DNA from: Nemertoderma westbladi
Taxonomy: Eukaryota > Animalia > Xenacoelomorpha
Direction: 5' to 3'
NCBI GenBank assembly: GCA_032718475.1
Contig: JAUCBJ010004237.1
Location: forward strand, 1 to 64,000
Length of the DNA: 64,000 bases
This document shows, in pieces, positions 2,597 through 46,750 of the stretch. The stretch's first letter is position 1, and each line of letters begins with the position of its first letter. Below the pieces are notes generated by a model, which made no database searches, was not told the origin of the DNA, and saw only the letters and a program-made list of their open reading frames with translations. Position numbers and translations under genes: made by a program.

Positions 2597-2710
2597 TTTT
2601 TTATAAATAATTTTGTAATAAGGTGTTGTTCAGAAATGGAAAAAATTTCTGAATTTCTGAACAACAACTTATTACAAAATCATATATATAATAATAATAT
2701 AGAACAGAAA

Positions 2711-3280: not shown

Positions 3281-3825
3281 TGTTAGCTTATTCAATCCCG
3301 CTAACACCCCATAAAAGTTAAGCCGATAAGCAATATTGGGGGCCACGAGATTGGGTAATCACCAACTCGTGTCACCCCAATAAAATGGGAAGGAGAAACA
3401 CAATGAGGGTCAGGGGCCAAACCCCTAACCCAGAGAGAACAGGTGGAGTGAACGGGAACACTCCAAAGGGCGCCAACAAGGGTATCAACCAATCAGAGGG
3501 GGGAAAGGCATCGATTAGGTAGAGTAACAAGGCCAACCCGTGCAATATAGCCAGTTGGCAGTAATCATTTCCTTCAGTTATCTCAGTATCATATTGGTGC
3601 TAGTTAGGTTAGTTAGTTTAGCTAGGGAAGGACCGGGACTTTAATTACCGTATCCCGCCTTCCGGATACGACAACATTATCCATATCTATGCTTATATCT
3701 ATATACCCGTACAACCGATTATTATATACGATGAACGACACGAACTCTTTTTACCTTTCACACACGGCGGGGACGCGTGAACTAAACAACCGGATAAACC
3801 GGGATCCTTCCTGGATCCCGTCACA
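3281..3825 (+). repeat. 5' LTR
   Basis: TGTTAGC...CCCGTCACA. It matches 15162-15706 with three substitutions seen by eye. TATA-like AATATAG at ~3544 and TCAGT Inr-like motifs at ~3574-3587. Confidence 0.97.
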
Positions 3826-3899
3826 GTAATTAAAACTCAGAGCTGCCGCCCTAGCTAGCTAAACCCAGCGACTACCAGCCACCAATCGAACCAAGCGAG

Positions 3900-5162: not shown

Positions 5163-5436
5163 ACCCAGAAGTCGCGGAATACATACCGGCGAGTAGGCCA
5201 GAAGCTGATAGGCCTATACCGGTACCAGCACAGCAGTATGACTACAGCATGCAGGGACATAACATATACCCAGGGGAGGGGGGAATTATTGCGGATAGGT
5301 GTATGGGCCCCAATATATTAACATCAACCCCAGTACCAAACATACCGGTGGGGGGGGGGGGGGGGGGGGGGCAGGGTGACATACCCCATCACAATATCAA
5401 CAATATACCCCGATAGGAGCAAGAACAACGAGACCC

Positions 5437-8400: not shown

Positions 8401-10698
8401 ATATACGATCCCCTAGGCCTAGCATCCCCATTATTAGTCACGGGGAAACAGATACTCAAGAGAGTATACAAATTGAAGGATGAGTGGGACGTAGAGGTAC
8501 CAGAGGAAATCAAGAAACAGTGGAGTAAGTGGACAGGAGACTTGGAGAAGATGGGAACATACAACATGCCACGAGTGTATTTCCCGGATGGGAACATGAC
8601 GAATCTGGACCTACACATGTTCTCCGATGCGTCGTTGGAGGCGTACGGAGCGGCACTCTACTTAGTACAACGAGAGGGGGCTCATAAGCCCAGACTAGCC
8701 TTTAGCAAAGCAAAGTCAACGCCGCCAGATTCAGCATCAGTTCCCAAGTTAGAATTGACAGCTGCGAGACTAGGAGTTAGAGCCACAGCCTACCTAGTGG
8801 ATACTATTCCCAACATAGTGGAGACACACTACTGGACGGACTCCATGGTAGTGCTTGGTTGGCTACATAATGAAAGGACGAGATACCCAATATTCGTCGC
8901 AAATAGAGTGGACGAAATAAGGGCGACCACAGAACTGGAAAGGTGGCACTACTGCCCAACGGACGAGAACCCAGCGGACTTGTTGTCGAGGGGCGTGGTA
9001 CGCCACACTTTCTTGAAGAAGGAAGTATTGTGGCAACATGGGCCACAATTTCTGAGCGATAAGGAGGCCTGGCCGCCGATGAAAAAGGTGGACCCGGGCT
9101 CAGAAGTAGTGTCAGAGGGAGAAGAGGGAGATTCAGAGGGAGAAGAGATATACTCCCGGATGGTGAGGGAGATTAGAGACGTGCAACCAAGACGAGAACT
9201 GTGCGATAACCCGACGGATAAACTCCTCAGCTACAGTTCTAGTTGGTATAAGACCAAGAAACTAGTGGCGTACTGGAGAGCCTTCAGGAATTTCCTCGCG
9301 GGAGTTGGCAAAGACAAGATCAAGACATACATAGATCTGGAAGGAGTGGCCAAGGCAATCATCCGCTATGAACAACGGAAGAACTATGGCGACGAGGTAG
9401 AACGCGTCGGTAACCAACAGCACCTCCGACGGGACAGCGAGCTGATCACGCTGTCGCCACAACTTAATGACGACGGGATTCTAGTAATGAACTCTAGGGT
9501 GGGATACAACAATAGCATAATCGTACCACCGAAACCCATCATCATTCCAACAGGATCGCCAATAGTTCACCAGATTATCTGGGACTCCCATAAGTCGATA
9601 TTGCACGGGGGCACCAACCGAACCCTCACCGAGATAAGGAGGACCTTTTGGGTCAAACAGTTGAGGAAGAAGGTAAAAGCGGTGGTGGGGCAGTGCCAGA
9701 CCTGCCGACGAGCGAAGAAGGAGCGAGCCATACAAGAGATGGCGCCACTACCAGCGAGTAGAGTAAGACAACACGACCCGCCATTTACGCATTGCGGTGT
9801 GGACATGTTCGGGCCGATAAAGATAAAGGTGATGCGGCACACGGAGAAGCGCTACGGTATCATCTTCGTATGTAACAACACGCGGGCGGTAGGGATAGAA
9901 CTCGCCCAAGATGCAACCGCATCAGCATTCATTAATGCCTTAGAAAGGTTTAGAGACCGCAAAGGTGGGACGATCGCAGTGATATACAGCGACAACGGCA
10001 CCAACTTTGTGGGCGCAGAGAATGAGATGGCAGAAGCCTTGGACATCTTGGAAGGGGAGGAAGTCAGGGCGGCCATGAGACGACGACAAGTAAAGTGGGA
10101 GAGAAGGACGCCGTATGCACCACATACACTAGGATGCGTCGAGAGACTGGTGGGCAGTTCAAAGCGTCTAATGACGAAGCTAATGAACACCCACATGGTC
10201 ACTGAGGACGTCCTGAGAACAGTATTGGCGAAGTGTGAGGGTATCATTAATAGCAGACCGCTATATCCGGAGAATGATGACCCTGAGTCACTAGACATGC
10301 TGACGCCTAGCCATTTTCTAATGGAAAGGCCAGCGACCATCGATATGCGGGGTGTAGATCCAGACGACATACACTCCCGCCAGAGTTGGAAAGTCGCTAA
10401 AGCAATAAGCGCCGAGTATTGGAGGAGGTGGGTCGAAGAATACCTGCCCATGCTCCATAAAAGAAGCAAGTGGAGGAAGCAGAATAGGGAGTTAAGAAAG
10501 GGAGATCTCGTAATCGTTACGGATGATACTATCATCAACAACCAATGGCGGTTGGCGAGAGTTGTAGGCACTTACTCCGACGAGGACGGAAGAGTCCGAT
10601 CGGTAGAAGTGCGGATAGGTGGTAAGATAGGTGCGAAGGACAGAAAAACCTACAGGAGAGCTGTAGGGAAATGCTGTCTGTTAGAAGGGGCACCTTAG
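5437..10698 (+). pseudogene. pol: BEL/Pao gag-pol polyprotein (capsid, CCHC, protease, RT, RNase H, integrase) with one in-frame TAG at 7549-7551
   Basis: LVDSGA; YLPLHV..KLRMVVDAS; FYVDD; YDPLG; FSDAS; WTDS; NPADLLSRG; H..ILHGG..CQTC; VDMFGP; SDNGTNF; ERLV. ORFs 5437-7551 and 7603-10698 are in the same frame. Confidence 0.96.
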
Positions 10699-11400: not shown

Positions 11401-11898
11401 GAGTAAGAGGTAGAAGGGTATATAAGATATAGATATTAGTTAGCAGTTAGTAGCGAGAGGGAGGCATATGAGTACAGTTGGGTAAATCGTGTGGCCACAC
11501 GACGCATACTTCTGTACTGCACAAGCCCACAGAGTAGGCCAGAATGTGGATTAGAGAATAGAATAATCCATAGGCAATAGTAAGTAGTAGGACAGTAGAA
11601 TTAAAATTAAACTAAAAATAAATAGATAGATAAAAATAAATAGAATAGGGCTGAAAGTTACAAATTATGGCAACACTAGGAAAGTTATTCTGGAACATAA
11701 TAAAAGTAACGGACAGAAATCGAAATTAGGGTGTATTTACTAGCTTCAGAATTAATTAGTAAGAATTTAGGCTAAAAGGGCGCAGTTAAGTAAGGAATAG
11801 GCCATTATCGGACTGTACAGAACATCTTAGATACATCACTCATCTGTATTGCGCCTTGGTAAGGCACCACCTTACAGGTGAGCGAGTGAGTGTTCGGA

Positions 11899-14441
11899 AT
11901 GGCGAGCAAATTGATCAGAAAGAGAAAGGCGGAGTCAGGAGGAAAGGAGATACTGGTGGATTTCACCGAGAGGCATCCGGAAGAGAAGACGAGAGGATAC
12001 TACGAGAGGTTGGAAAGGGGTCACGCGGCACGAGCGCTGCAGGATCACTTCCGGGAGATGCACGAACAGCGGCTGGTCGGGACCTACGGGACGCCGTCGC
12101 TGGACAACGCGATCTTCCAACACTTCCACTACGTGGTGAAAGGGGACGATGCGAAGTTCAGGATTCCGAAGTACCCGAGGGAATCACCGAGGAAGGACTG
12201 GAAGAGATTCATAGAGTCTGTCAACAGGGGAGGATATATGATCCTAGACGACGAGGGAACCGTGGAAGACGAGGCGGGTTCGAGACGAGGATCGGCGGGG
12301 TCGGCCAGGACCATACTCCTACATTTGGCCGCACCAAATGGGGACATCTTCTTATTCGATCTAGGAACGTATGGGAAGAAGGACGGGCCAAAATTAAACC
12401 GGTTGCCGAAAGCGGTACAAGTCTTGGTAAGAGAGAAGTCGACGACGAAAGTAGGATCGGCGATTCGCGAGGATGCGGAGAGAATCATCGGTCCGGACGC
12501 CACCAACCTCCTGGATATGCAGAAGGTCTTTATGGCTATGACGGCACCGGATGGGTTGGGGGTAGTCGAAAACACAGGCCAATGCGGGGCAGTGGCAATG
12601 GGCCAACTATTGGGGCTCGTGTGCCACAAACCGATGGACTGGGGGAAGTTCAGGGAAGAATACGGAGCAGAACTAGCGAACTCGCTAAAGTGGGGAGCGA
12701 GACCGGGAAAGCAAGAGGTATATCAATTCCGCAGAGGAGCGATAAAGGTATATCAGAAGCGATATATCCTGCAGGAAGACTGGATGATGATAAGTTTGCT
12801 TAACTTATTTATGACCGTGGTTATCGAGAGGGAACCAGCGGCATTTCTGTTATCAGGATCACCCCTAAGCTACAGGAGAGCCTTTAAAATGGCCTCCGAC
12901 TGTCTGGCAGACCACCCGGGGCTGAAGGGCGAGTCGGTGTACTACAACAGCCGACATCTGGTAGACGGGGAGACAGATACGCCGTATCAGAGATGGGAGC
13001 AGCTAGAAACGGATAGACGAGAAGCAAAGCGACTGGAAGAAGTCGCTAGATGGGAGAGGATAGAAGCAGAGGAGAGGGAAGAGGAGGCCAGGACGCAGAG
13101 TTACGTGTTCGAGGAACAGGCAGGCTTAGACGAACTTCATTGGACTTCGTCAGGGAGTTCGGGGGAGTCTCTAGGGCGAGAACTGGGATGGACGGTGGGA
13201 TCACCGAAACAGTCGACGTCGGGGTTGCAAGAGATGCCCATACCAGCGGGCGCCGAAGGCGACCAACCGCCAAGGAAGTTAAGGGAACTAGAGGGATGGA
13301 GAGCTACGGGCGAGAGCCAAGGCGGGAAGGGACATAGTGGATCCATCGGGATACCGGGGTTGGAGCCACTGCCAGAGGAGGAGGATGACGACGAGTTCGG
13401 AGAGATGCCGCCCATCGAGAGGATAGGCCACTCGGACACGGACTGGGTTGGCGGAAGGGTGGTGACGGCCAGTGGGCGAGGGCCTTCTGGAACAGATCCG
13501 GTAAACGGACCTGGGTGCACGAGGAGCCGGCGATGGATTTCGCGGGGAGCACTATCAGGTTGGGCGAGCAACCGGGGACGGCACCACGGATAGTATTCGG
13601 GGAGACGATGCCCGAGAGGGGCGGAGAGATCGACGTAGACAGGGACACCAACGTAGAGAAGTTCGCCTACCAGCGACTCCACAGACCGCGGAGATCGCTT
13701 GGGACGAAGGACGACGTGGGGCCGGAGACATTGGTACTCGGCTGCAACTACTGTGGCAGGCAGACCCACCAGGAAAGGAGCTGCTTGTACCGGTTCCAAA
13801 AGGGAACCTTTTGTCTCTACTGCCGAGAGCCGAGCCACAGGATGGGGGCGTGTCCACGGTTGCATAACCGATGTCCAAAGTGCAACTTTCGGGGACACTA
13901 CGGACGCCAGTGTGACTGGATGGACGACGAAGAGAAGTTCAGAAGATTCGAGGAGTGGGCCGACGTCGGGGCCATGACGCGCCAGCGCATGAAGGCCCAG
14001 GAGTTCAAGTGGGGTTTCTTCCTTATCAATCAGGAGGCTCACATGGAAATCATAAGGCGGAGGCTACCGTTTACCTATCAAGAGGTAGCAACAGCAGCGT
14101 CGTATGCCGGAGTGATGAACACACAAAGATATTTGGACAGGTGGACGCCACAGAACTGAGGGGAGTTTAGGGATTTCTTGGCGGAGCACGTGCCGCGAGC
14201 AATGAAGATGATCCTATGGGACGCCATCAGAGGGAGACAACAGGGCCACTCTGAGGGGCCACCGGCGAAGCGATATCAGGCACTAATAACACCAGCGCCC
14301 AAGGAGCCAACAACCGGAATCAGCAGGGAGGTGGCGGCGAAAGTCCGAAAGCAGAAAGCGGATCCCAGAGGAGCGGTGGTAACCAAGAAACGACCCAGGG
14401 AAGAGGATGCCAGGGGGAACTATCCCCAGAGGAACAGATAG
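11899..14441 (+). pseudogene. ORF3: DEDDy-type 3'-5' exonuclease (WRN/EXD/Mut-7-like) + acidic linker + three CCHC zinc knuckles; one frameshift (~13419) and one in-frame TGA (14157)
   Basis: ExoI YMILDDEG; LLHLAAPNGDIFLFDL; LPKAVQVLVREKSTTKVGSAIRED (ExoII); NLLDMQ; KWGARP...QKRYILQED (ExoIII-like). Knuckles CNYCGRQTHQERSC, CLYCREPSHRMGAC, CPKCNFRGHYGRQC. ORFs 13515-14159 and 14178-14441 share a frame. Confidence 0.82.
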
Positions 14442-21002: not shown

Positions 21003-22408
21003 CCCTATTAAACCTGGGGGGGTGGGGGGGGTCAATATGACCCCCCCCGTGGTTTTTTTATTATAATTCTGAAACAAACGCAGTTGGGAATCTGAAATTT
21101 TATGACTTTTCCTAAAAATCTATTGTCTTCCTAGTAGTGAAAACCGTTTTCAAAAATATTGGGTACTTTTCGAGTTATAGCACCATTTTTTAACCCTACT
21201 TTTGGCACTTTTTTTGAGACGTTTTTTGAAAATTACATTTCATTAAATATGAATTGTAACATCTCTATTTTTGATTTACACCGTTTTTTTGGTGTTAGAA
21301 ATTTGATGGAATTCATATAAATTGATTTAGAAATTTCGAACTTGTTTTTTTCGGTGGGTGCCAAATTTTGGTGCCAGCACCAAATTTTGAATTATGTCAA
21401 TTTTGTAATTTGATTGTTTGAAACTTGTTTTTTACGCAATTGGGGTTTTTTGGGGTTCTGGATTCGATGAAATATATACGAGTTGCACCAAGCGTATCAA
21501 ACTTGTATTTTTCGGTGCTGTGTGCAAATTTTGGTGCTAGCACGAAATTTTGAAAATTCATTCGATAGATAAAATTGCTTGTGACAATTTATTTCTTGCG
21601 TTTTAGAGGTTTATGGCTGTTCTGAATTCAATGGAATAAATAATTATCGAACTAGACATCTTAAACTTGTATTTTTCGGATGTGGGTGCAAAATGTGGTG
21701 CTAGCACCACATTTTGCACCCGCTTCCGAAAAATACAAATTTGAGATGCCTAGATCGAAAATTATATATTCCATTCAATTCAGAATAGCCATAAACCTCT
21801 AAAACGCAAGAAATAAATTGTCACAAAGAATTTTATCAATTGAATGGATTTTCAAAATTTTGTGCTAGCACCAAAATTTGCACCCACCACCGAAAAATAC
21901 AAGTTTGATACGCTTGGTGCAACTCGTATATATTTCATCGAAACCAGAACCCCAAAAAACCCCAAATGCGTAAAAAACAAGTTTCACACAATCAATTTAC
22001 AAAATTGACATATTTCAAAATTTGGTGCTGGCACCAAAAATTGTCACCCGCCGAAAAAAACAAGTTTGAAATTTCTAAATCAATTTATATGAATTCCATC
22101 CAATTTCTAACACCAAAAAACCGGTGTAAATCAATAATAGAGATGTTACAATTCATATTTAATGAAATGTAATTTTCAAAAAACGTCTCAAAAAAAGTGC
22201 TAAAAGTAGGGTTAAAAAATGGTGCTATAACTCGAAAACTACCCAATATTTTTGAAAACGGTTTTCACTACTAGGAAGACAATAGATTTTTAGTAAAAGT
22301 CATAAAATTTCAGATTCCCAACTTCCCAACTGCGTTTGTTTCAGAATTATAATAAAAAAACACCGGGGGGGGGGGGGTCATATTGACCCCCCCCCGGGTT
22401 TAATAGGG
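21003..22408. mobile_element. piggyBac-type fold-back MITE (almost entirely palindromic, ~1.4 kb)
   Basis: TTAA|CCCTATTAAACC...GGTTTAATAGGG|TTAA. Arms mirror each other to a centre at GTGCTAGCAC (~21697-21706). No transposase. Confidence 0.9.
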
Positions 22409-23769: not shown

Positions 23770-24645
23770 CAAGTAATAGGAACGAATGCTTTTTCAAACA
23801 ACCATGTTCAGCAGGATCTGGTCTCTCAAATATAGTATAGTGTAGAAAAAATATAGCATTAGCAATATAGCAATATATCAAGCAATAAAAATAAAATGTA
23901 TACGATATTTCGAGTCAGCGTGACTCTTATTCATGTATTATTCTTAAATTCAAATGAATTTTCTAGAACAAATAAATAATTGAAATACTGTATAAATACC
24001 ATAGGTAACAACATAAATATAAAGTTTTAATCTTCTTGAAGAAAACCTGTGTAGCCATGTAAATTTGCGGTTGCTTCATTAATTGTGTTTATTCCGTATG
24101 GTTCTAAGGTCTGCAGTGAGCACTGGTAGTAACCCTCCCTCTTTCTCATTTGGATTTTGAGTTCTTTTCCCTTGTATCCCTTAATACTATCTATTGGTGT
24201 TATATGAAAATCTTCCCATGAATGTCCGTTGCTTGTAAAATGTTGATCAACCTTACATGTCTGCTTGTCCCAGTTACTCTTGTTCTTACACTGATGCCTA
24301 TGGAGTTCGCAAAATAGACACCATTGCAGATCCATCTGCTATTTCCCCAGATGAATTTGGAAGATATAGGGATGACATTTTAGTTTTATATTTACATGAT
24401 ATAGATTTAAAATTAAAACGATTAGTTGAGGATTTAAATGATCAAGTAAAGCCAAGACAAATTAAATTCGTTACTGAACAGATGGGGAGAGAAGTTAATT
24501 TTTTGGACCTCAAAATTTTCATTGACGCCCATGGAACCATTCAAACTGATATTTTTTTCAAACCTATGGACGTACATCAGTAATGGATAGGACTTTGTCT
24601 CACCCACCATCTCAGATCAAGTATGTACCGTATGGTGTAGCTATG
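23770..24645. mobile_element. Second Penelope family: inverted pLTR (EN C-terminus on minus, 24027-24260) joined to an RT fragment on plus (~24290-24645)
   Basis: Minus: QHFTSNGH...REGYYQCSLQTLEPYGIN. Plus: GRYRDDILVL...IKFVTE...VNFLDLKI...TDIFFKPMD, followed by an S-H-P-P-like motif. Confidence 0.85.
23900..23938 (-). ncRNA. Minimal type I hammerhead motif (A3-U8 core variant)
   Basis: Minus strand TAC-ATGAATA(A)-GAGTCA cgc TGACTC-GAAA-TAT-C-GTA. It lies ~90 nt downstream of a GIY-YIG stop codon. Confidence 0.72.
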
Positions 24646-24650
24646 TATGT

Positions 24651-26635
24651 ATGTATAGTGATGAGCTATGTATGGTGATGAAGTGTCGAAATGACCTCTA
24701 CAAGGCGCAGAAAGAGTCCCGACTCAAACAGACTACAGCGGCCAAGAATGTAGTTAAGGCTGCATCTAGGTCCCTGAACAGGCAGTACTCTGTTAATTTA
24801 CAGGAGCTAATAAACCAACAGGTTGATACCATCAATGATGCTGACGACAGCAGGCTATCATCCCAGGCATGGAGATCGATCAACTTGCTTGCTGGTCGAA
24901 AAAGCCAACCAACCACCAAGGTTAAGGCTGAATCACCAGCCGATCACCTCAATGGTTGGAAGGCCCACTTCGAAAAGCTCCTCAATAATGACAGGGTATT
25001 GCCTGATAACTTTATAGAAGTAAAAGTTTCTGAGTCTGTACTCCCAGATATTCCCATTGGTGATATCTCCTTTGCAGAAGTGAAGGCTGCTGCAAAGAGC
25101 ATTAAGACCAATCGTGCCAGTGGAGTAGATGGTGTTCCCCCTGAGGTCTTTAAAATACGTGAGTGTTTAAAGCTCATCTATCCTATCATAGTTGACATGT
25201 ACCGAACAACAAGAGTCCCACAAGAAATGAAAACAAATAAGTTGGTGCCAGTTCCCAAGAAGGGTAACCTAACACTCAATGGTTCTTTTCGGGGAATCTC
25301 ATTGATCTCGATTGCTGCAAAGCTATACAATAGAATTCTATTAAATCGCATCAGGGATCCCATTGAGAGACTGCTCCGTGGAAATCAGAATGGGTTCTGT
25401 AAAGGTCGTGGGACCATGGAGCCTATTTTGGCACTTAGAAGGATAATTGAAGAGTTATCAAAAAAGAAAGACAGGCATCTGGCTGTTATCTTTGTTGACT
25501 TCTTCAAGGCCTTTGATTCAGTCTCTCGCTCACGTATGTTCAGCATACTTTCATTATATGGGATTCCTGATGAAATTATTGCAGCAATCAGATCAGTATA
25601 CGATGGTTCGACAACATTTGTGTCTACGTTGACGGTGACACAGAACCATTTGAAGTGTTATGGGGCATCCTCCAGGGAGACACACTTGCACCATTCTTGT
25701 TCATAATTGTTGTTGACTATGTTCTACGCATGTCCTTAGATCATCATAATGATGATGGGGTGATGATAACTCCACCTACTGGCTCCAGAAGTCGAGGAAA
25801 TCCTGCCAAGTACCTAACTGATCTAGACTTTGCTGATGACTTAGGAGTAATCTCAGAATCACTAGAGGGAGCCCAACGGTTCATTAGAACATGCTGCTTC
25901 TAGTGTTGGTCTTTTTATTAACTCCAGAAAGACCACAATTTTGACAGTAAACTTTGAAAGTCCTCAGCAAGTCTCTGATCGAATGAGCATAAGCTCAAAA
26001 GATGGTATGCTTGAGCATGTGGATGACTTCTGTTACCTGGGATCATGGATCCGGAAGTCAGGCGAGGACCTTCAAATACGTAAGGGAAAGGCATGGGCAG
26101 CCTTGAATAGGCATTCCAGGATTTGGAAGTCACCGAGAATTAATCGGACACTTAAGGTCCGATTATTTAGAGCAGCAGTAGTTCCAGTACTCCTCTATGG
26201 GAGTCCATGCTGGGCTCTAACTGCTGAGGACACCAAATCTCTGGATGGCACTTTCACATGAATGCTGCGCTGGGTTCATTGTGTCAAGTACAATGCACAC
26301 ATCTCCAACCAGACACTATATAACATTGGAGGTGTCTCATTGGTTCCCCCAAGCTTGACACTAGAACAAAATCGCCTCCGCTTTGCAGGACATTGCTTTC
26401 GCTGTGAGGACCAGCCAGTGCATAATCTTGTACTTTGGCAGCCTCATGGAGTGAATAAGCATGGTGGGCAGCCCATGACTTTCTTGAGACGCATCTTAAA
26501 GGACACTGGCCTTGAAGATGCGGATGATCTAGCAAATGTCATGGGTGATAGGGAGTTGTGGCAGTGCAATTTTGTCGATAAGCCGGCACAGCTTAAAAAT
26601 GCAGCTGCAATGCAGCATGCCGTTCCTAGTAGTGG
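24651..26635 (+). mobile_element. 5'-truncated RTE-clade non-LTR retrotransposon (RT, frameshifted)
   Basis: ASGVDGVPPE, VPKKG.L, FRGISL, QNGF, FVDFFKAFDSV, GILQGDTLAPFLF, LDFADD, FCYLGS, LLYGS.CW, RLRFAGH. 3' end CCTAGTAG. Confidence 0.9.
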
Positions 26636-27002
26636 AGGCTAGACAGGATACCAATTAGCCTTCCCCAGTTTCCAGCAGCTGATGTTCATATACTAATACC
26701 AGTCTGCAATCTGTATATAAGTTAGTTTGTGAGCCATTTAATATTGAGATAAAATTCAATGTTTGTTTTAAAACTTAATATAATAGAAAGTTTGTAAATT
26801 CCAGTAAAATATTTCATATATATAATACAGCAATATATATAGTTATGTTATTATTAATCAGTTTTTTCTATGTATATATAACATCATAATAAATAATTCA
26901 AATGTTTCTAACACTAAACTAAACGAAGTTCTATGTAGTTAAAGTAATATTTAATATAAGGATTATTATCTAACCAATCTAATCCTAATATGCTTAGGTC
27001 TA

Positions 27003-27594
27003 TTATAAAGTAAACTGAGATATTAAATGTATAAATTTTGGTAAAGTTAAACTAAAATTTGAAGGTGAGGTCATCCAGGTCATATTACCACTTGCAAATA
27101 CACAAAAGGTTATTGCTTTATCAAAACGCACTAATATATTACAAAATATTTCTGGCTCATGGAATATTTGTATATGTGTATTATTTTCTATATGGAAGCC
27201 AACCTGATATGCAAATTTTGTAAAATTAATTTTATATTTGAATACATATGTATGAGAATTTATACAGTATACCTCTAATTCCATTTTAGTTATTAATTTG
27301 ATATAGTTTAATACCTTATCAATGGCCTTATCAATATATTTACAATGGCCTAATATTGTTACTTTTCCACCAGCAAAAAATAAAACAGTATATTCATATA
27401 TTTTAAATATAAATTGAATTGGTTTCTGATGTAGAACACCTTTAGATGGTTATTAAGTTTGTTTAAATTAATTAGTTGTTTTATTTTTGGTCTACAACTT
27501 ATATTACTATTTATATTGTATAATTTGGTATAGCTGTAGGAATCATAGATTCCAATTTACTAAAAGTAGGTTCATCTAATTCAGAATCAGACAT
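27003..27594 (-). pseudogene. TATA-binding-protein-like ORF (two TBP half-repeats), two frameshifts near the 5' end
   Basis: Manual translation: MSDSELDE...NYTI / SNISCRPKIKQLINLNKL / LHQKPIQFIFKIYEYTVLFFAGGKVTILG ... INFTKF ... FHEPEIFCNILVRFDKAITFCVFASGNMTW. Compare TBP motifs ALIFSSGKMVCTG and YEPELFPGLIYRM..LLIFVSGKVV. Confidence 0.62.
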
Positions 27595-27601
27595 AATTAA
27601 A

Positions 27602-30600
27602 CTATATTAATACTGGTTGATGATATTGATGAGGAATTGGTCGAGTTACTCCTGTTTTATAATGTCCAAATGGCAAGGAAGTGTTACCATCATGCCACCA
27701 ACGTTTATCATCAAACAAATTTAATGATCTCTTTATTTCTCTGAGGATCTATAATTGGTGTAGCTTGGATCCTATTTTACGACTTTCTTCATAGAGCTGA
27801 GTGGTCTCCCTATAACTAGTTAAGTATGAATTATGAGTTAACTTTTTATTTATTACTGGTCTTGTAACTCCCTTAGCTGCTTTTTTATCCTCACCACCCT
27901 TAAAACTATATGCTTTAGGCTTTAATAGGACCCATTCGGTATATTCCATTCCCTTGTTTTCATCTTTTACCATATTAAGGTCACCTTTATTTAAAGTACA
28001 GTATAGAGGATGATTACTGTCATAGAAGTATCTAATATCTTGCGATCTTTCATCGCCTTCAAAAATTTAAGATGTGAAATTCCCTTAATAATTATAAAGA
28101 AAGAGTCTGTGTCACCACATGCTATCTGTAATGTACAGTTTAGTTCTTTTTCTAATGGTTTCAGTTTGTCATACAACAATGAATACATACTTAGTTTCGA
28201 TAATGACAGTACAGCTTCTCCAATATATATTTGTTTATTCAAAGTAATCTTTGTTTTAGATAAGGTGTGCCCACTTAGAGAGTCTGTATATATATCAAAG
28301 TGCTTATGGTTTGGCTTTGCTAAAATCTGCTCACATTGATATTTATTATTGCATAATCTAAAGTTCAAACGGTTCCTCAGGTTCTCCATTGTCTTACCAA
28401 ATAATAAATTATTTAATAGTTTATAAAAGTCTTTTTCAAATTTATTTTTGGCATTTTTACGTTTATCAATATTGAAATATATATAATCACGAAATATATG
28501 ACCTTGCTTGAATTTATATAATCTGTGAATTTTTGTAACTTTCATTCCATGACATAAATAAAACTTAAGCAGTTCTAAATGGAGACCATATGCAACCTTA
28601 TTAAACTGATTAAGCAAAAGTTTTTCTGTAGAGTGGTATTTCTTAGCCTGGGAATTTGTTTCTGTAGATGTTGAGGTTTTATTGTGTTGATTCCATAGTT
28701 TTTTTTTTTGATAATCACTCAAAAATTGTTCACATGGTTGTAATTTTTCAGGACAAAATGGTAAGTCTGCAGACATGCAAGTCATGTATGTGATCAGGAT
28801 GATCTAAGTCTAACTGCTAGGTATCCAATTTCACAAGAAGTGTCTAAACCCATTAAATCAATAGTATCAATATTAGTCATTTGTATGTAGTCAGAGCAAG
28901 GAAGCTTTTCTGCTAAACACCCAGCATAATAAATACTTAAACATTCAACATTTAATAAATGACACTCTGGTACTGAAGTCTTATAATTGTCAGTGCCAGT
29001 TATGTTTGCCTCTATATAATGTGTATTTATATATGTCATCCTACCATGTATGGCCTTCTCTATATCGTCATATATATCATGCTTGCTTAAGAGATGTAAT
29101 TTTGTGTTTGTGAACTTTAATTCTGCATCCCAAGTCATGGAGGAAGCTGTTGTTAGGAAGTGGGCTGGATCTAAACCATAGTTATTAAAACAAAGTTGGC
29201 GAAAATTTTAAAAAATGAAAAATGTCAGCTAGTAAACAAGTATGAAGGTGCAAGTATGCTATTAAATAGTCAAATAATGTATTACAACTAAACATTGACC
29301 AAGATTTCTATGCCCTATTATAATCTTCAGGTTCACAGTGACTTAACATTAATTTACTATAGAATTGTTCGATAGGTGGAAGGTGTGTCTGATCTAGTTT
29401 GTCAAGACTAGTTATAGCCTCATATGGGAAGACTCCCTTGCTCTTTAGTATATCATCTGATACTGTAGGGTATAATGTTCTATGTGTTGAACTGTATGAG
29501 GAAGACTTAGAATCAAGTTAGTTATATCATCTGTCAAGAAAGAAGCAAGTTGACCTAAAGAATGGGCCATAAAATTAAAGCTGTCTATAATTTGTATATA
29601 TATTTTATTGATGTTGGTGTTTGGTTCATTAATTTTGTATGGAATTGTACCTTTTATAGTTATTTACTTTTCAGTAGTTTGTGCAATTGTCTCTATTTTC
29701 CAGTCTGAATGTTGATTATTTGTAAATGCTTGAGTTAGTATAAGATGACTGTCGATGCCCTTAAAGTTATGAAATACAACTGCCATATGATTTATTTTTA
29801 AATTAATTTTCTATTGCATTTATGACAAGCAAAAAAAGCAAAAAAAGCATTTCAGCCCTACTTACTTAATACAATTTTATTCTTTGTGTTTTCTAGTGAC
29901 CAAGTATAAAGTTCCCTGAAATGATTTTCTAGAGATGTAAGAAAGTCATCTATACAGTTAGTTGTAGATGTTTGTTTGAAGGTAGCTAAGGATTGTTGAG
30001 GAGGGCCAACTAATTCTTTGTATGGGATAGTAAGGTAGCTGTAGCAAGCAGCAGATGGTTGCAATACATTAGTATATTTAACATGATCATTTGGTTTAAT
30101 TACACATTCGAAGTCAGCATAATGTAATTAATGGCAATGGGATTGTTCTATCAAATCTTGTAAATTTTACATTTAGCTGAGCTCCAGTTGGCATTGATGT
30201 AGCCAGCCGGTGGTTTTAATTGGTAACAACGTATTCTGTGTTCTTCAAGGGCATTGCTAGTATAGAAACCACGGAGACACCTTTCACATCTCTTGCAATG
30301 TGTATCACTTCCATCCCCTGTCATACTGTTCAACAGTCTATCTTTATTGCTTGCTTATGGCATAATAGTGCCTATAATAGTAATAGTACATAATAGTATT
30401 AGTGCCCATAATAATGCATAATAGTTGCTCACTTCTTTTTTTCTATGAATAATAAGTTCAGTAGTTCTTTTCCTTCTATCTTTTTACCTTCAGGCTGTCG
30501 TCATATTTCTACTTTATTTTCAGTGTTATACAGTAGTAAATTTATAGCTACGTTTTTGTTTTTTCTTTCAAATCTGTCAATATCATCTTTACAGTTAGTT

Positions 30601-31050
30601 GGAAATCCTACGTCACTAAAATCAAAGTAATTTTCCCATTGATTGTACAAACTCTTTCTATTATAATTAATTGGTATTTGTTTATGAAATTTGGCACAAA
30701 TACAAGCATCTCTAAAACATTCAGATTGGTTTCCACCTTCTATATTAATTATACAGTGTTTGTCTCTCTGTGTTTTAGGGATAAATGCCCCTTTTTTTTT
30801 AATTTTATTTTTTAAATGACCCTTTAAATATATGTCTCTACTATAGCTAGCTACCCTTACTTCAATATTTGATACCCCTAGTATATACCAGCCAGAACCA
30901 CGAGTAATAAAATTTGCAACCTATTCTAAAATATAAGCTAGGCTATCTCCAAACCAGTAGTTAAATTCTGATTCGCTTTTAATTATATTATCACTATTTC
31001 CTCTAGAATTAAAAATAAATATAGCCCCATCCCTATTTCCATCACCATCC
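27602..31050 (-). pseudogene. polB: Protein-primed family B DNA polymerase (Polinton/Maverick-like), heavily degraded
   Basis: GSGW N-terminal motif (~30890), C2H2 CERCLRGF..LEEHRIRC, YADFEC-like (~30110), FHNFKG.D (~29765), KGVFPYE (~29430), KLLNNLLFGKTMEN.R.R, YIG.AVL.LSK..MY, GDTDS, KPKAYS, KGV, FDDKR, LPFGHY. Confidence 0.88.
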
Positions 31051-31053
31051 TCC

Positions 31054-32733
31054 CTATCCATATCTACATACTGATAATGTCATCCTAATAAATCTGTGTG
31101 GTTCTATCGTATCTATATCATGCATGTTAATATTATTTGATATTTCAAAAATATTACATACATTGTTTTCATTTTGTTGCAGAATCCCCTCAATGTCTGG
31201 GTTGTTCCCATTTATCTCACATCTAAAGTACTTTAGACACCCATCATGACAGTTTCGCCTCTCGATAAATGTATCTTCACCTTCGTGATCATTAATGTCA
31301 AGTTGTGGCAGTGAATGTGGCGGCAAAGATGACAATGGCATCTGATGCTGATATGGTAGAGGTAGTGGCGATTGTGGTGGTGGTGGTGGAATCAGAGGTG
31401 ATGGTAGCAGAACTGGTGACTGTGACAGAGGAAGTGGAGGTGGTGGTGCTGTCCTCAGTGGAGAAGTTGGTAGAGATAGCGTAGGTAATGGTTGTGGCAT
31501 CAGCAGTGGCATTGTTGATGGGGGTAAAGTAGTAGTAGGTGACGATATCTGAGCAAGTAGTGGTGATGCTGGTGCAAGTAATGCTGGTAAAGGTGATATA
31601 GGAAGTTGAAGTTGTAAGCTTGACTTCAGCAATGGAGATGGTGATCTAGAGCTTGGTTGTAACAAAAACTGAGAAGATGAGATAGGAATGGCCACTTGAG
31701 GCTGATCTATTGAAGCTGTAGCAAACTGTACTGGTGGCCTACTGATCAGATCAAATTGTGTAGTCATTGGTGGAGGTGGTATACTATACGGGATTGGTGG
31801 TATACTGATTGGTGGCGGGATAGTGTATTGAACTGATGGTATATCCATGGTATCCAGGGTTGAAATATTACTAGGACTACTACTACTACTAGGATCGGCA
31901 TGCTGCATTGCAGCTGCATTTTTAAGAATGCTGTGCCGGCTCATCGACAAAATTGCACCGCCACAACTCCCTATCACCCATGACATTTGCTAGATCATCC
32001 GCATCTTCAAGGCCAGTGTCCTTTAAGATGCGTCTCAAGAAAGTCATGGGCTGTCCACCATGCTTATTCGCTCCATGAGGCTGCCAAAGTACAATATTAT
32101 GCACTGGCTGGTCCTCATGGCGAAAGCAATGTCCTGCAAAGCGAAGGCGATTTTGTTCCAGTGTCAAGTTTGGGGGAACCAATGAGACACCTCCAATGTT
32201 ATATAGTTCTGGTTGGAGATGTGAGCATTGTACTTGATACAATGAACCCGGCGTAGCATTCTTGTGAATGTGCCATCCAGAGATTTGGTGTCCTCAGCAG
32301 TTAGAGCCCAGCATGGACTCCCATAGAGGAGTACTGGAACTACTGCTGCTCTAAATAATCGGACCTTAAGTTTCCGATTAATTCTCGGGGACTTCCAAAT
32401 CCTGGAAAGCCTATTCAAGGCTGCCCATGCCTTTCCCTTACGTATTCGAAGGTCCTCACCTGACTTCCGGATCCATGAGGTCAGGTGGACTACTAGGTTA
32501 CTAGGACTAGTTGATGGTTTAAAATGCTTGGAAGGGGGAGAATGGTCTGGATTGGATATTATTTGTTTGTCGCAATAGTGATGTAGGTAGTTGTCTAGCA
32601 TTAACATGTTCAAACAAGTTGGGCATTGTTGTGTAGAGGATGTTTCTCGGAAATGCTGTGTGCACAAGTGGCGGGGGTAATTTTTCTTTAAAGTAGTTAT
32701 GGGGCAGAAGGCGCATTGAGATTGTCGATTCAT
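31054..32733 (-). pseudogene. Zn-finger + proline-rich ORF, probable N-terminal extension of the polB reading frame, split by an RTE insertion
   Basis: CAFC..HLCTQH and CPTC..HYC. Removing 31880-32497 and one TSD rejoins ..KPSTSPSN|ISTLDT.. in frame. Confidence 0.65.
31880..32497 (-). mobile_element. 5'-truncated RTE copy with (TAG)n tail and 12-bp TSD
   Basis: Near-identical to ~26043-26633. TSD TTACTAGGACTA at 31868-31879 and 32498-32509. Confidence 0.92.
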
Positions 32734-33310
32734 TTCTAAAAAAAATAGAAATGCACATAAAATATTATGTTGCTCGCAAGAATTTTTTTATTTCTATTAG
32801 ACAAACCTTCAATATAACTGTATGACATCATAATATATGAAATGGAGTAAGGGAAAGGCGAGAAACAAACTGACAAAGGTATGTAAATCTTTAGCTGTCA
32901 GTATATTCTTGAATGGAATTTTGTTAGAAGTGGACTCCTTCCATTCAAAGTTTCAGAGCTTTAACATTAGGCAATGCTTGCAGTATTTGGTTCGTTCTAA
33001 AAACAGATTTCATGTGTGAGCATAGTTCCCCATAATGTGTTACTTATATTACTATATTACTATTATTATTACTATTATTTATATGACACTTACTTGAATT
33101 ATTAACAAATGTTTCATTAAATTTTTGTTCAGAATAATATAGATCTCTCTTTTTCTTCAGTATTTATCTTCTTCTTCTTCTTCTAATCCCTTGAATGATT
33201 GATTTTATCAAAACGCGTAAAGATTAGTTATCAATGAAAGCTTAATGATACTATAATAATAATAATAATAATGGTATCGGATAAATACAATTATGTTCGA
33301 AATTTATTAA

Positions 33311-36300
33311 TAGAAATGTTTTTAATATTTGGAGCTCAATAAGGCAAATATATTTCGATTTATATTAAAATCATTATCAATAATAAGCACTATAGGTAGG
33401 TTGTAAGTATGTTATGAAATTGTTATAATTACTTGGTATTTCTAGCAAACTGCGATATACTAACTGTACCGTACATTATACAACATCTGTATGTGCTGAT
33501 ATGCACCAATTGTATTATTACCCATTAACCAATCAAGGCCCACCACTCTGTCACCCCTATTATTACCTCACTGTATTTCTACAGCTTACCGAGCTCAACA
33601 TTACTCATTCACTATAGTTGATCTCATTTCTGCAGTTTCCCAAATGGAAACTCCCCCTATTAACACTCTTTATTACATTGTATTCTTGACTCTTACGATA
33701 TTTTTACGTTTATATTATTAGATCTCTTATTATGTATTCATGTTCTTGTATTTCCGTATATCTTATTACCCCTTACCGCTTATAATCCTATATTATTATC
33801 TTATATATTGTCTATAATAAATACGCTCCTAATTGCCAATCAAATAAACAAATTATTCTTCATGGGATGTAACCGTGTAAACTGGGTGAAATCCATCTAT
33901 AGTTGAACATATTACAATCACATAGATCATCTTATTGTTTTATACACAAGAGCATATCAATCGCTCTTACAATCGCTCTTCTGTCTTGATTGAAGTGTCA
34001 CTAAGTATTCGCGTACCCAGCGGGTCCAAAAATGATTGGCTAGTAACTGAGCCTGGCGCCATTTACGAGTTGAGTATGTATCACTGTCATAGATGGGACC
34101 TGGTGGTAAATTGTAAGCAGGGCGCTGTAATAGAAGGTGGTTCGGAGTTAAGATTTCATCAGCTTTAGGGTCATTGGTACTAAGGCACAAGGGGCGGCTG
34201 TTTAGAATGCACTCTACTTCTGCTAATGATGTCACTGACATGTCATCTGTGACAAGAGAATTGCCAAGGACCTGAAACAGAACTTGTTTGATTGAACGGA
34301 TCAGCCATTCATATACACCACCCATATGGGGGGTGTACGGTGTTATAAATTTCCATGTAATGCCCTTTGGGCGCAGGGCAATATCGATCTGATGTTCCCA
34401 TAGTTCCAGGTTTTGCCGTAATTCTGACTCGGCACCTACGAAGTTTCTCCCATTGTCTGAAACTATTTCCTTTGGCGAACCTCTCCGTGCTTTAAAACGG
34501 AAGAACACATTGATAAAGGCATCAGCTGATGCATCAGCAGCTACATCGAGGTGTACTGCTCTGCAGTTAAGGCACGTAAAGATAAAGGCATAACGCTTTA
34601 TAGAACCTCTCCCGTATTTGACCTTTAGTGGACCAAACATATCAACGGCTGAAAACGTAAATGGCGGCTCATATGGGGTCAGTCTAGAGGACGGCAATGG
34701 CGCCATAAGCTGATTCACACGTGGAGCCTTACATTGCCGACATTTAAAGCACTTACGTATTAAAGACTTGCAGAAAGTGATAAGGCCAGGGATCCAATAG
34801 GATTCCCTTACCTTGGCAACTACTTGGTTGGGACCGGCATGTAATAAATAGATGTGCCAGTGCCATACTATGACATTTGTAAGTGGGTGTAACTTACTCA
34901 AAATTATAGGGTGTTTTGTATCGTAGGATACTGGGGCGGAGGTAATGCGGCCACCTACCCGCAATAAACCATCCTGAGTTAGGATTGGGGCTAGATTAGC
35001 TAGTGGGCTTGAGCAAGCTACTGGGGATGATTGCAGTAACATTTGAATTTCGTTAGGATAAGATTGCCTCTGTGAGAAATAAATCAGACATCGTCCAGCA
35101 TGGTGACGTTCACTTACCGAGACAAATTTACCTTTAAGATTTAAGACCGAATTTGGATTTAAAGAATACTTGCAAAGACGTAAGATCCATGCGAACAGAG
35201 TCTGTAATTTATTCCATGACGAATGTTTAGCTATAAGTGAACCTATAGCATTAAATGCTGTGTTAGAATCAATGTGGACATTAAGAATTATTTCAGAGTC
35301 AGGATTGTGGTATGGTGTCTGTTCTTCGACAACTATGTCAAACCAGAAGTCTGTCATGGTGATGTCATCGTTATAATCAATATCAGATGACACCAATATA
35401 TGAGAAGTTAGCACATCTGGGTTATTGATTAGTGTATTAGTAATAGTTTCTGGGCATATGGTTGATACTGTCGTCCATGTTTCCTCGGGCTGAACGAGAA
35501 AAGGAGGCCCATGCCACAATTTCTGTGAATTAATGAGCTTGACTGCTGTAAGCCCACGAGTAATGTCGTCTGCAGGGTTTAAATGACCAGGTACATGTTG
35601 CCATTGTGAACTGGTTGTACGATCAAGGATATACTTAGTGCGGTTGTGAACAAAACATCGAAATTGCTTGATGGTGTTGTTTATGTACCCAAGTACGACA
35701 GTAGAGTCTGTCCAAAAATAACATTTAGCGATTGGTAAGTCTAGGGATTCTAACACAGTTTCACTTACCTGCGCTGCTAAAACTGCAGCTTGGAGCTCTA
35801 ATCGAGGAACTGAATGTCCAGAGGCTGTACGAACTAACTTACCTTTGCTGAAAACGAAAGATGAATTTATTTCATTATCACTTACAGATTGGATGTACAA
35901 TACTGTACCGTAGGCCACTTTAGAAGCGTCTGAGAAAATATGTAGCTGGTAGTTGATTGGAACCGAATGGACGGGGATGTACATCCTAGGGATTTCCAGT
36001 TCGCTAAGCATAGGAAGTTGATCTCGCCACTTCATCCATTGACGTGCTGTATCTGGTGGGAGTGGGGTATCCCAGTCTAATTCCATTGACCACATTTTTG
36101 CTATAACTAATCGACCTGCTATGATTAATTGGCAAGATAAAGTTAATGGGATCGTACAATGAGCTAGTCAAAGAGACGCATCCCCGTTTAGTTAATGGTG
36201 TGTTTTTAAGCACATAGGAGAATATGAAGTTATCTGAATTTGTGTCCCAGGAAACTCCAAGGGCACAGGTTATAGGAAGATTATCAAAATCTAAGTTAAT

Positions 36301-38652
36301 GAAGGATTTTGCCTTTTCTGAATCGGGAAAGGCATCTAGGAATTGTCTAGAATTGGAGGCAAATTTTGTAAGGTGAAAGCCACCTAATTTGAGGCAATCT
36401 ACCATCCCAGAAGCGATGTGAATAGCTTCAGAGACAGATGCTGCACTTTTGAGGCCATCATCCACATACATGTGGCGATTAATGGCATCAATCACCTCCG
36501 GGTTAAAATGACTGGCATTATCAATAGCAGTTCGTTTGACTGATCCTGATGCCACAAAGGAAGAATCGCAAGCACCAAATATATGTACTAACATTTGGTA
36601 AGTCTCCACTGTGGTAGAGCCATCGGGCTGCCACAAAAAGCGAAGACTATCGGCATCGCCTGGTGTGACTCTCACCTGGTGGTACATTTCCTTTATGTCG
36701 CAGGTGAAAGCCACAGGATATTGTCTAAAACGCAAAAGAATTCCAATAAGGCTACTGGTGAGATTAGGACCTTCTAACAGTTGACTATTGAGGGACATCC
36801 CTCGGTATAAGGCAGCAGCATCATTTACGATCCTTGTCTCACCAGGCTTGTTGGGATTCTCAACAAAATGATGGGCGAGGTAATATGTCTGTGGCCCTGG
36901 TGTTATCTCACATGGTAGGAGTTTGCGAGCATAACCCTTCAAGACATAATCGTCTATTTTTTGTTGATAAAGGGCATGGATATATATGTGGCTTACGATG
37001 TAGCTGACGGATTAAATATGCGAAACTAGATTTTGCCATATTATAATTATTAATTAATAATGGAGGTGAGTCCCTCCAGAGCATTCCTACCTGATAGTGA
37101 CCATCCACTAGACGTATTGACTTAGAAAACATTTCTAATGCTTTTAAGTCATCCATGGATGGTGATAGAAACTCATCGATCAGGGGTGAGGGTTTTGGGT
37201 CTGAAGGTGAACTTTCAGCAAAACTCTGAAATTTCATCCATTGAGTGACCTGTTTAGAGATGTCGCGGTCTGTGCAAGGGTCACTGACTGTGATGTGATT
37301 AAACTGTGTTACTGTACTATTGGGTTCAACTGCTTTACAGCTCACAGGACCGATTATGCACCATCCAAATGGTGTCCTAATTGCAGAGGGATTAGGGTTC
37401 CCAGCCTTTGGGAATACATGTACATCCCTAGCTAGGGCCTCAGGATGGTTACCACCAACCAGAATTGTGATTGATGGGATATCAAGATTAGGGCAGCATG
37501 TCACATATGGCAATATGTGATCTAAGTGCTGGAGCGTTTTAGGACACAGTTGTGTTACATCATATGAGTAATCCCTTTTGAAATCGGGGGCTACAAATAC
37601 TTGAGGCATGTTGATGACAAAATTGGGTTTAATTTCTGGCTGTCCTTTGATAGGTGAGATACTACATGATATTTCCCCTAAAGAAACAGACATATTTGAT
37701 TGGAAGACAGTACTAACATTAAGAGAAGTAGTTTCGGGAATGATACCAAGAGTATCAGTTACATTTTTGTCAACAAATGTCGCAGTAGACCAATCAGTGC
37801 ATCAGAGCAGTGCATATGTAGTGAGTGATTTATTGGCAATGCATATGGTTACTGGGACTACTGATAACCATACGGGTTGTACTTTGGCAATTGATAAGTG
37901 TACAGACATGGAATTGTACGATGGAACTGAAACATTATTACAGTTACATTATTGGCTGCCCCCATTCACAGCCGTTTATCCTATACAGATAAACAGCTGT
38001 ATTATTCCCTTCACTCCTGTTCAGCTACATTAGGTAGGTATCTCCACTGCGCTACAACCCCTTATTACCCATTAACCAATCAAGGCCCACCACTCTGTCA
38101 CCCCTATTATTACCTCACTGTATTTCTACAGCTTACCGAGCTCAACATTACTCATTCACTATAGTTGATCTCATTCCGCAGTTTCCCAAACGGAAACTCC
38201 CCCTATTAACACTCTTCATTACATTGTATTCTTGACTCTTACGATATTTTTACGTTTATATTATTAGATCTCTTATTATGTATTCATGTTCTTGTATTTC
38301 TGTATATCTTATTACCCCTTACCGCTTATAATCCTATATTATTATCTTATATATTGTATATAATAAATACGCTCCTAATTGCCAATCAAATAAACAAATT
38401 ATTCTTCTTTATACAGTAATAATGTAATGGACAATTGTATGTGTAATATTCAGTCAGTGCATATCAGCACATACAGATGTTGTATAATCTACGGTACAGT
38501 TAGTATATCGCAGTTTGCTAGAAATACCAAGTAATTATAACAATTTCATAACATACTTACAACCTACCTATAGTGCTTATTATTGACAATGATTTTAATA
38601 TAAATCGAAATATATTTGCCTTATTGAGCTCCAAATATTAAAAACATTTCTA
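33311..38652. repeat. Composite A-B-[BEL fragment]-B-A' structure
   Basis: A (33311-33506) is inverted at 38457-38652. B (33515-33861) is repeated directly at 38062-38407. Confidence 0.85.
33978..37980 (-). pseudogene. pol: Second BEL/Pao family pol fragment (PR-RT-RH-IN), frameshifted and truncated at both ends
   Basis: YYLAHH.V, RIVNDAAA, HMYVDD, FSDAS, WTDS, NPADDITRG, HAGP..CFKC, VDMFGP, SDNGRNF, LNSRPL. The sequence breaks at LQSRQK. Confidence 0.93.
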
Positions 38653-39189
38653 ATAATAATAATAAAAATAAAAATATTAGGCTAAAAACTGAAAACTTTT
38701 TACCTGTAACTCGACAGAGTCAAATATGTAAAGTGATGATCTGATTTGTGTGTTGCTCTTATGTGTTTTAGTGGAATTTTGAAGGAATTTTCTGGAGTGC
38801 CAATTGGGTTGTATCGGGAATAGGTTTGAATCAGATGAAATAATAATCATGGAACAATAAAAAAATTACATGATGTCACTAGGGGGACCAAGTCTGACCA
38901 TGTAGTTGACCAGCATTCATTCATGGGTTGTTTAAATGCGACCAATAAATTTAAAGGTTATGAGACTATGAAAAAATCAGACAGTAGACAAGTAATTTTT
39001 GACAGAATGTTGAAAAAGTTTAAGATTGTTAATGTCTGGAGAAAAGCCCATTGCTCTATATTATTGTGTTCCTTATTAAAATAATTAATCGAGTTTATCT
39101 GTCTAGACCTGCCTCGATCAATGAAAAATACGTGATTACCCTTGGTGCCATTGTGACACATCATTCATGATTATACTAAGAGTATACTA

Positions 39190-45714: not shown

Positions 45715-46750
45715 GGACCTCCTAAGCCACTAAATAAACCAATAGCTAACCCAACATTACACCATCTCTTGCCACAAATGTCTTTGTACCTGATAATGTT
45801 ACTCTGAATGAAGAGAACAATTTTAAGCTATTCCACGTGAGCTGCGCAGGATACTTCGACATAGTGGACCAAACTTATGGTCAAATAGTTATCGACAATA
45901 GAGATTTTGCTCGATCTGTTTGTCCTGAATTATTTCGATATTACGCAACAGGGGTGTTATGGCTTCGTATTATCGAAAATAAATCTAAGCTCGGAACACC
46001 ACACTAACTGACGCTGAACACGAAATTAAATATTTAAACGCGAATCAGGTCCTTAATGTTACAGAGCCATTACACCTTTATCTATGCGAGATAGGCCTAA
46101 CAACAACCTCAAATGGCGAGAGGTTCTATCCAACTTTTCCCGAACTACCGACAATTCCAGTTGGAAATCAGGGTGGATACTTTGGACAAATTACCATTGC
46201 ATCACACACAGTCTATGAGGAAATACCATGTTTAGGCATCGTCGTGGAGGCATGCAGACACACTACAGTCGAAGCAGATATTGTCTACCATTCTGTGCTA
46301 AACACACAGCAAAATGTAGTAAATCGTAACCTGCTAGGCTATGGCCCGTTGAGTCAACGCAGATCAGGGGTTTTATCTCTCCTGACAGCTTTGGATATCA
46401 CCATCGATCGGTTCCCCGAAGATGTTCCTAATACTGCATTTAACCTTAGTGTAATGCGTGAATTATAAGATCATCTGTTGCAGGTCCAAACATTCAAGAT
46501 ATCCCCAATTTAATTCGCTACATTAACTTGTATTGGAGGAATATCTCAAACGCTGATCTGCCATACCAGAAACGTCAATCCACCACCAACTCTGGCAAAA
46601 CATTCCGACATATATATATTGTTACTGTCCAGAGACACTCAGACAACAGTAGGTGTAGCTATGACGTTCCTATTCCAATATAGGAGACCAGGAACCAATG
46701 CCATGATACCAACATGGGCATGTCTTACTCCTACACACGAACACCCTTAC
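45715..46750 (+). pseudogene. Endogenous viral element, partiti-like dsRNA virus capsid protein, main part (frameshifts and stops)
   Basis: Manual translation: ELFRYYATGVLWLRII..K..LTDAE..LNVTEPLHLYLCEIG...FPELP..GGYFG..HTVYEEIPCLG...NLLGY...ITIDRFPEDVPNTAFN...QTFKI. No introns. Confidence 0.68.

Follow-up and report, generated by a model that had tools for sequence, protein, structure and literature searches.

A decayed Polinton-type polB in Nemertoderma westbladi is followed by a divergent TATA-binding protein gene

We examined the first 64,000 nt of contig JAUCBJ010004237.1 (forward strand; assembly GCA_032718475.1) from the xenacoelomorph Nemertoderma westbladi, and we refer to this whole stretch as the window. 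On its minus strand, between 32733 and 27003, are the remains of a gene for a protein-primed DNA polymerase (polB) and, directly behind it, a gene for a divergent TATA-binding protein (TBP). What remains is a dead piece of a Polinton-type polB element rather than an intact Polinton.

The polB relic and the TBP gene behind it

The polB frame ends with a stop codon at 27604-27602 (minus strand), and the TBP gene begins on the same strand with an ATG at 27594, 7 nt behind that stop. The TBP gene (27003..27594; 592 nt) is intronless and changes frame twice, near 27515 and near 27450, so that it is spread over three frames. We identified it with Pfam, the Atlas, a family profile, and an AlphaFold2 model with fold searches. 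A 148-aa piece (27006-27449) matches PF00352 with 26.5 bits (cut-off 22.9; E = 5.8e-6). The broken upstream piece alone scores 2.0 bits, which is not significant. When this upstream piece was prefixed to the 148-aa piece, with an X at the break, the score against the family profile rose by 8.1 bits and the match reached profile position 9; none of 200 shuffles equalled this gain. All 30 Atlas matches of the 148-aa piece were TBP clusters, though the recognition fell under the tool's threshold.

An AlphaFold2 model of residues 1-148 of this piece, built with 64 relatives (mean pLDDT 78.9, pTM 0.55), predicts the two-repeat saddle of TBP. With this model as the query, all 24 Foldseek matches in PDB at E ≤ 1e-3 were TBP chains or TBP complexes. 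VIA-align superimposed the model on yeast TBP (residues 89-239) with Z = 10.3 over 140 residues (root-mean-square deviation 4.0), as compared to Z = 6.6 for the best unrelated fold. A search of BFVD found TBP-like proteins of large DNA viruses. Searches with the sequence of the piece gave no match in PDB, solved cellular TBPs included, at E ≤ 10, eight candidates in a single-sequence search (none at E ≤ 1), and no matches at E ≤ 1e-3 among 1.84 billion representatives. These failed searches reflect divergence and decay and are no proof of novelty. A first-pass annotation of this DNA, made from the letters alone, had already pointed to an ATG behind the end of polB on the same strand and had described an intronless, TBP-like frame far from the host's TBP. 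Both statements agree with our results, and the saddle fold that it proposed to look for was indeed predicted.

The core of the polB pseudogene lies at 27602..31000 (minus strand) and is of the Polinton type whose relatives carry EndoVII/HNH. We used six intact homologs as tblastn queries. Their matches start near 31000 and continue to 27605, each query being split into 6-8 segments; they cross 4-7 changes of frame (7 with five of the six queries) and contain 4-7 in-frame stops. For the longest piece without a break (27994-28803), we found 602 homologs at E ≤ 1e-3; the best are 44-45% identical, and many contain PF03175 and PF02945. The EndoVII/HNH module is largely missing from the window's polB: gaps between the aligned segments leave it short by about 30 residues.

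Further upstream on the minus strand are a Pro/Ser-rich stretch (31054..31879) and an ATG at 32733 that opens a piece with two Cys/His clusters (32498..32733). The latter piece has no match to a Pfam zinc finger. Because the polBs of three relatives (L040, L052, and L074, described below) begin with C2H2 fingers, both stretches are best read as the likely N-terminal extension of polB, with the Cys/His clusters as its probable zinc-finger N-terminus. The N-terminus of another homolog, P0008, is also Pro/Ser-rich. The first-pass annotation had noticed a zinc-finger and Pro-rich extension, and both stretches are there, but it passed over the shortened EndoVII/HNH module and missed the secondary insertion between the two stretches. 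This insertion (31880..32497, minus strand) is a 3' piece, about 610 bp long, of a long interspersed nuclear element (LINE) that we take to be of the RTE type. It is 95% identical over 603 nt to a LINE at 26035-26633, it is flanked by two copies of a 12-nt word (31868-31879 and 32498-32509), and it contains a DUF6451 match below the cut-off. It separates the zinc-finger-like stretch from the Pro-rich stretch and so interrupts the polB N-terminal extension.

The TBP gene of the window could have been expressed either from a transcript shared with polB or from a promoter in the 3' end of polB. A weak candidate for an internal promoter is a TATAAA at 27656..27661 (minus strand), 67 nt upstream of the TBP's ATG; it is one of five in about 1.9 kb of AT-rich DNA that we examined, so it could be there by chance. 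We rejected two candidates for a cognate box: ATAAAC at 27708, which is within conserved polB coding sequence, and TAAGC at 26996, which is directly behind the TBP stop codon.

TBP genes in other copies and in related polB loci

Three diverged contigs from runs of the same species span the polB-TBP junction. One is from run X1, which may be the source sample (record 2, bridging 27411-28158 with 97 differing letters and 8 gaps), and two are from run X3 of a second study (record 18, 27337-27995, with 84 differing letters and 5 gaps; record 17, 27217-27683, with 38 differing letters and 22 gaps). Because X1 also contains a contig that matches part of the TBP gene exactly, the diverged contigs represent other copies, which may have arisen either by separate insertion or by duplication. 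Thus, the adjacency to polB on which the first-pass annotation relied recurs in other copies.

We collected 106 related polB loci: 26 viral loci and 80 from metagenomes (the best 80 of 493 confirmed, with 22 of 64 parts covered). Five of these loci contain TBP (L033, L035, L040, L052, and L074; Pfam scores of 46-56 bits), and two of the five, L033 and L035, are near-identical. The intact TBPs are about 170-205 aa, and in all five loci the gene is downstream of polB on the same strand, 0.9-5.5 kb away. The three long TBP loci (L040, L052, and L074) carry rve-chromo integrase and ATPase-like genes, plus protease-like or PLA2 genes. Absence of TBP from the other long loci refers to the stretch that was fetched, and six whole records of such loci were likewise negative for PF00352 (0/6). 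The first downstream ORF (open reading frame) of L047 resembled the TBP piece (E = 0.03), and we rejected it as it fails both Pfam and the family profile. No locus was recovered from viral contigs when we scanned them with the polB piece by itself or with the TBP alignment.

Some other features of these loci are worth recording. The TBP frame begins before the preceding ORF has ended in four of the relatives (L033:4818-5739, L035:1872-2826, L074:7499-8399, and L040:8792-9743). This preceding ORF is homologous in L033, L035, and L074, where TTAAGC lies 40-43 nt before its start. KilA-N genes are present at L052:11675-12640 and L037:4909-5661, in two loci that fall on the TBP side of the tree described next.

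To place the window's copy, we built a tree from its unbroken 270-aa polB piece together with 20 protein hits and 50 of the 106 loci; we excluded loci whose coverage was short or whose score was weak, among them 5 of the 26 long TBP-less loci. A single branch (SH-aLRT 99) splits the window and all five TBP loci from all 21 rows for long TBP-less loci (20 distinct). Judging from this tree, the window's copy represents a deep-branching lineage among the TBP-bearing Polinton-type elements.

In cellular TBP, four phenylalanines intercalate and acidic residues of the stirrup contact TFIIB (from the available part of PMC12529657). A profile search found 75 further proteins of the TBP family, and we compared functional positions in a family alignment of 64 rows, using archaeal TBP 2z8u for position equivalence. 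At the column of the first-repeat Phe of 2z8u, 61 of the 64 rows, as well as the window's protein, have proline. The remaining three Phe columns have phenylalanine in all 64 rows and in the window's protein, which thus keeps three of the canonical four. The window's protein also contains the E-x-E-x-F of the second stirrup, aligned with the same motif in solved TBPs; its two glutamates are found in 62/64 and 64/64 family rows. The 148-aa piece scores best with the TBPs of L052 (23.1 bits) and L074 (20.4 bits). By sequence, then, the window encodes a divergent TBP rather than a canonical one, and this TBP belongs to a virus-borne family and is virus-type rather than host-type. Because proline replaces phenylalanine while the second stirrup glutamate is invariant, we predict that proteins of this family have an altered DNA-reading half and a conserved surface for TFIIB.

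Candidate promoter motifs also differ between loci with and without TBP. Of 233 genes in 25 long TBP-less loci, 73 are preceded by TATAA at a distance of 15-70 nt (29.9 expected), as compared to 4 of 37 genes in four TBP loci (2.6 expected; Fisher p = 0.010; L033 was left out as a near-copy of L035). In L074, TTAAGC is found within 100 nt of 7 of 13 gene starts. In L052, CATAAAC precedes 6 of 13 genes, including the integrase, ATPase-like, and PLA2 genes. Among 267 genes of the 25 TBP-less loci, we found these motifs zero times and once, respectively. A blind scan for hexamers in each locus gave p < 1e-4 in two of the three TBP loci; the value for L074 (p = 7e-8) was matched only by an A/T word in L019.

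A candidate late-gene switch, its alternatives, and the parent element

We propose that the window holds a dead fragment of a Polinton-type element with an altered TBP behind polB, and that in intact relatives this TBP reads a non-standard box and acts as a switch for late genes. We would put the probability of this reading at about 0.6. A late switch is likely to operate in the intact elements, and for its individual steps we consider the following scheme to be somewhat better than an even bet. TBP would be produced early, via the polB transcript or from a promoter within the 3' end of polB. With its altered first repeat, it would occupy the variant promoter box, while its acidic stirrup would be retained for the host's TFIIB, and TBP would bring the host's RNA polymerase II to late genes. 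In this way, the packaging, integrase, and particle genes of intact relatives would be turned on. More tentatively, and with odds a little short of even, there may be a large branch of Polinton-type elements with its own early-to-late switch based on one TBP, in which boxes specific to each sub-lineage co-evolved. The relic in the window would then stem from a deep sub-lineage that coupled TBP to the replication gene, with a single transcription unit for replication and for activation of late genes.

Several observations count against our proposal. The window's TBP deviates at two second-repeat columns that are otherwise invariant in the family, and TBP does not abut polB in any of the five relatives. 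The polB tree is midpoint-rooted and comes from a quick search without bootstrap on one 270-aa piece; the window sits on a long row (0.82) without a close sister, and no starred set includes it. On the TBP side, the tree also includes 16 loci of 1.5-8.4 kb in which no TBP is seen; these short loci are uninformative. Capsid-sized ORFs of the relatives were not confirmed as capsid by Pfam. As for the boxes, the motifs were chosen after inspection, no clear box is seen in L040, the third of the long TBP loci, and the background was computed from whole loci rather than intergenic DNA, with genes of one element that are not independent. The blind scan also gave p < 1e-4 in 6 of the 25 TBP-less loci (five pure A/T words and one with C), so L052, at p = 4e-5, is not exceptional. 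Finally, structural genes are absent from the window's copy, which leaves no late genes in front of which a box of its own could be sought.

The most serious alternative is that the element-borne TBP is not a factor for late promoters at all. It could be a decoy for the host's TFIIB or for other partners of TBP, or it could bind the termini or the origin and aid protein-primed replication. Binding to the termini or origin would fit the tight coupling to polB in the window, where the ATG is just 7 nt behind polB. An invariant stirrup beside an altered first repeat also suits this alternative, as does the missing box in L040, and a divergent TBP may switch its DNA target entirely: in the available part of PMC12209930, the TBP of Giardia is described as binding single-stranded DNA. 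Yet L052 and L074 have element-specific boxes in front of integrase, ATPase, and PLA2 genes, TATAA is scarce in the TBP-bearing loci, and the three other Phe columns are invariant. We think that a decoy or replication role is unlikely, although it deserves more weight than the other alternatives. Far less credible is that a decayed retrocopy of the host's TBP or TBP-related factor came to lie beside a polB relic by chance. The gene is indeed intronless and broken and is in a repeat-rich region. This explanation is largely refuted by the absence of any sequence match to a solved cellular TBP at E ≤ 10, by the proline of the viral family, by top scores with the TBPs of polB loci, and by the retention of the junction in diverged copies.

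What kind of element the fragment came from is a separate question. We compared 1056 ORFs (at least 100 aa) from the 106 loci with the 64-kb window by tblastn, and the only matches at E ≤ 1e-3 were in the polB region and in TBP: no capsid, ATPase, protease, or Polinton integrase was found in the window. We also found no termini in the part that we scanned for them (14000-64000), where old termini may have decayed. The first-pass annotation, too, saw no integrase, capsid, ATPase, protease, or terminal inverted repeats. The sole long inverted pair surrounding the element consists of two LINE pieces. Another inverted pair (33304-33515 and 38448-38659) was rejected as Polinton termini: it encloses an LTR (long terminal repeat) element of the BEL/Pao type and lies wholly upstream of polB.

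The missing genes, the abutment of polB and TBP unlike that in any of the five relatives, and the long polB branch could point to a parent that was a linear element or plasmid without a capsid and with little beyond polB and TBP. However, integrase and an ATPase-like gene are present in every one of the three long loci that share the window's side of the polB tree. Also, the copy has suffered heavy decay and is surrounded by younger LINE and LTR insertions, so loss of genes is expected. We consider a capsid-less parent to be improbable; the parent was very probably a Polinton or adintovirus with integrase and packaging genes, since lost in this copy. The first-pass annotation had suggested a relic of a little-described virus or linear element with its own transcription factor. 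The relic and the TBP stand, but the parent was most likely of the Polinton/adintovirus type and not some unknown type of linear element.

The rest of the window is repeat-rich eukaryotic DNA, with BEL/Pao LTR elements, LINEs, and GIY-YIG-type pieces; the labels BEL/Pao-in-MITE (miniature inverted-repeat transposable element) and Penelope are provisional. A broken LINE at 24591-26642 (plus strand), with a match to RVT_1, comes from the high-copy family that also supplied the piece inside polB; its end is about 360 nt past the TBP stop codon, and it conceals whatever came after TBP. Upstream of polB, the BEL/Pao element within 33304-38659 has LTRs that are 98% alike (33515-33861 and 38062-38407) and is flanked by 212-nt inverted arms (97%). 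Its insertion likely split a small palindromic DNA element at the centre. In another BEL/Pao element (128-10698, plus strand), the gag-protease region is present twice (128-2606 and 5380-7551), on either side of an insert that looks unrelated. Just behind a BEL/Pao pol gene, a 567-aa ORF (11890-13593, plus strand) without a Pfam match looks by eye like a 3'-5' exonuclease and is overlapped by an ORF with Cys/His knuckles (13389-14159, plus strand). A near-perfect 1.24-kb palindrome at 21041-22372 (621-nt arms, 95%, with internal repeats of 163-164 nt) lies among the GIY-YIG-like pieces. A 159-aa open frame at 45989-46468 (plus strand) has no match in Pfam, PDB, or the Atlas.

Comparison with known systems

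With Polintons, Mavericks, and adintoviruses (PMC8502044; PMC8097293), the window's copy shares a protein-primed PolB, intronless genes, and frequent decayed copies in genomes, and its relatives share the rve integrase and the ATPase-like, protease-like, and PLA2 genes. The related loci carry PF02945, with PF03175 weak or absent; this only resembles the descriptions of beta adintovirus PolB and pPolB2 in the available parts of PMC8502044 and bioRxiv 10.1101/2023.08.22.554363. In the available part of PMC8097293, TBP is outside the eight core genes listed for vertebrate Mavericks; in the window's copy, nothing but polB and TBP is left.

There is one precedent in print for a midsize virus that combines a similar PolB with a TBP-like gene: a MELD virus with an adintovirus-like PolB (Fig. 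5 legend of PMC8502044 and bioRxiv 10.1101/697771). In the available text, TBP appears there as an abbreviation in the legend, in a section on non-animal datasets, with no analysis, lineage, or promoter. This was the only label for TBP in Polinton-like viruses that we found in the available parts of the literature; the figures and the preprint's supplements may say more. One supplement text of PMC8502044 had no matches to TBP. Neither TBP nor TATA is mentioned in the main texts of PMC11161782 and 10.64898/2026.10.13.758929 or in the available portions of 10.1101/2023.08.22.554363 and PMC8097293. What is new here is the direct abutment of polB and TBP and the deep-branching lineage. Although the copy is dead, it adds breadth (a deep branch and a further host) and a new gene order.

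The window's TBP shares the two-repeat saddle with cellular TBP (PF00352) and with the TBPs of large DNA viruses. It differs from them in having proline instead of the first-repeat Phe, and the identity in structural alignments is just 15-22%. Large DNA viruses encode their own RNA polymerase; we noticed no RNA polymerase gene in the related polB loci.

Polintons encode capsid and packaging genes. If our proposal is correct, then a self-encoded TBP with a private box would be a one-protein answer to how they time the expression of their genes and pass from residence in a genome to the making of particles. The nearest parallel would be ORF24 of Kaposi's sarcoma-associated herpesvirus, a viral TBP of the beta- and gammaherpesviruses that acts at late promoters with TATTWAA: both systems would use a variant box, late genes, and the host's RNA polymerase II (available part of PMC12529657). 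According to the same source, ORF24 possesses additional domains at both its N- and C-terminus, acts together with five other viral factors, and has all four phenylalanines but not the acidic residues for TFIIB. In contrast, the TBPs of the window's family are stand-alone proteins of about 180 aa with three phenylalanines and a conserved acidic stirrup, and the window's TBP is not of the multidomain herpesvirus type (ORF24/BcRF1/UL87) with its polymerase-binding N-terminal domain. This family would then provide natural pairs of TBP and DNA with altered specificity, in which, unlike in ORF24, the surface for TFIIB has been kept.

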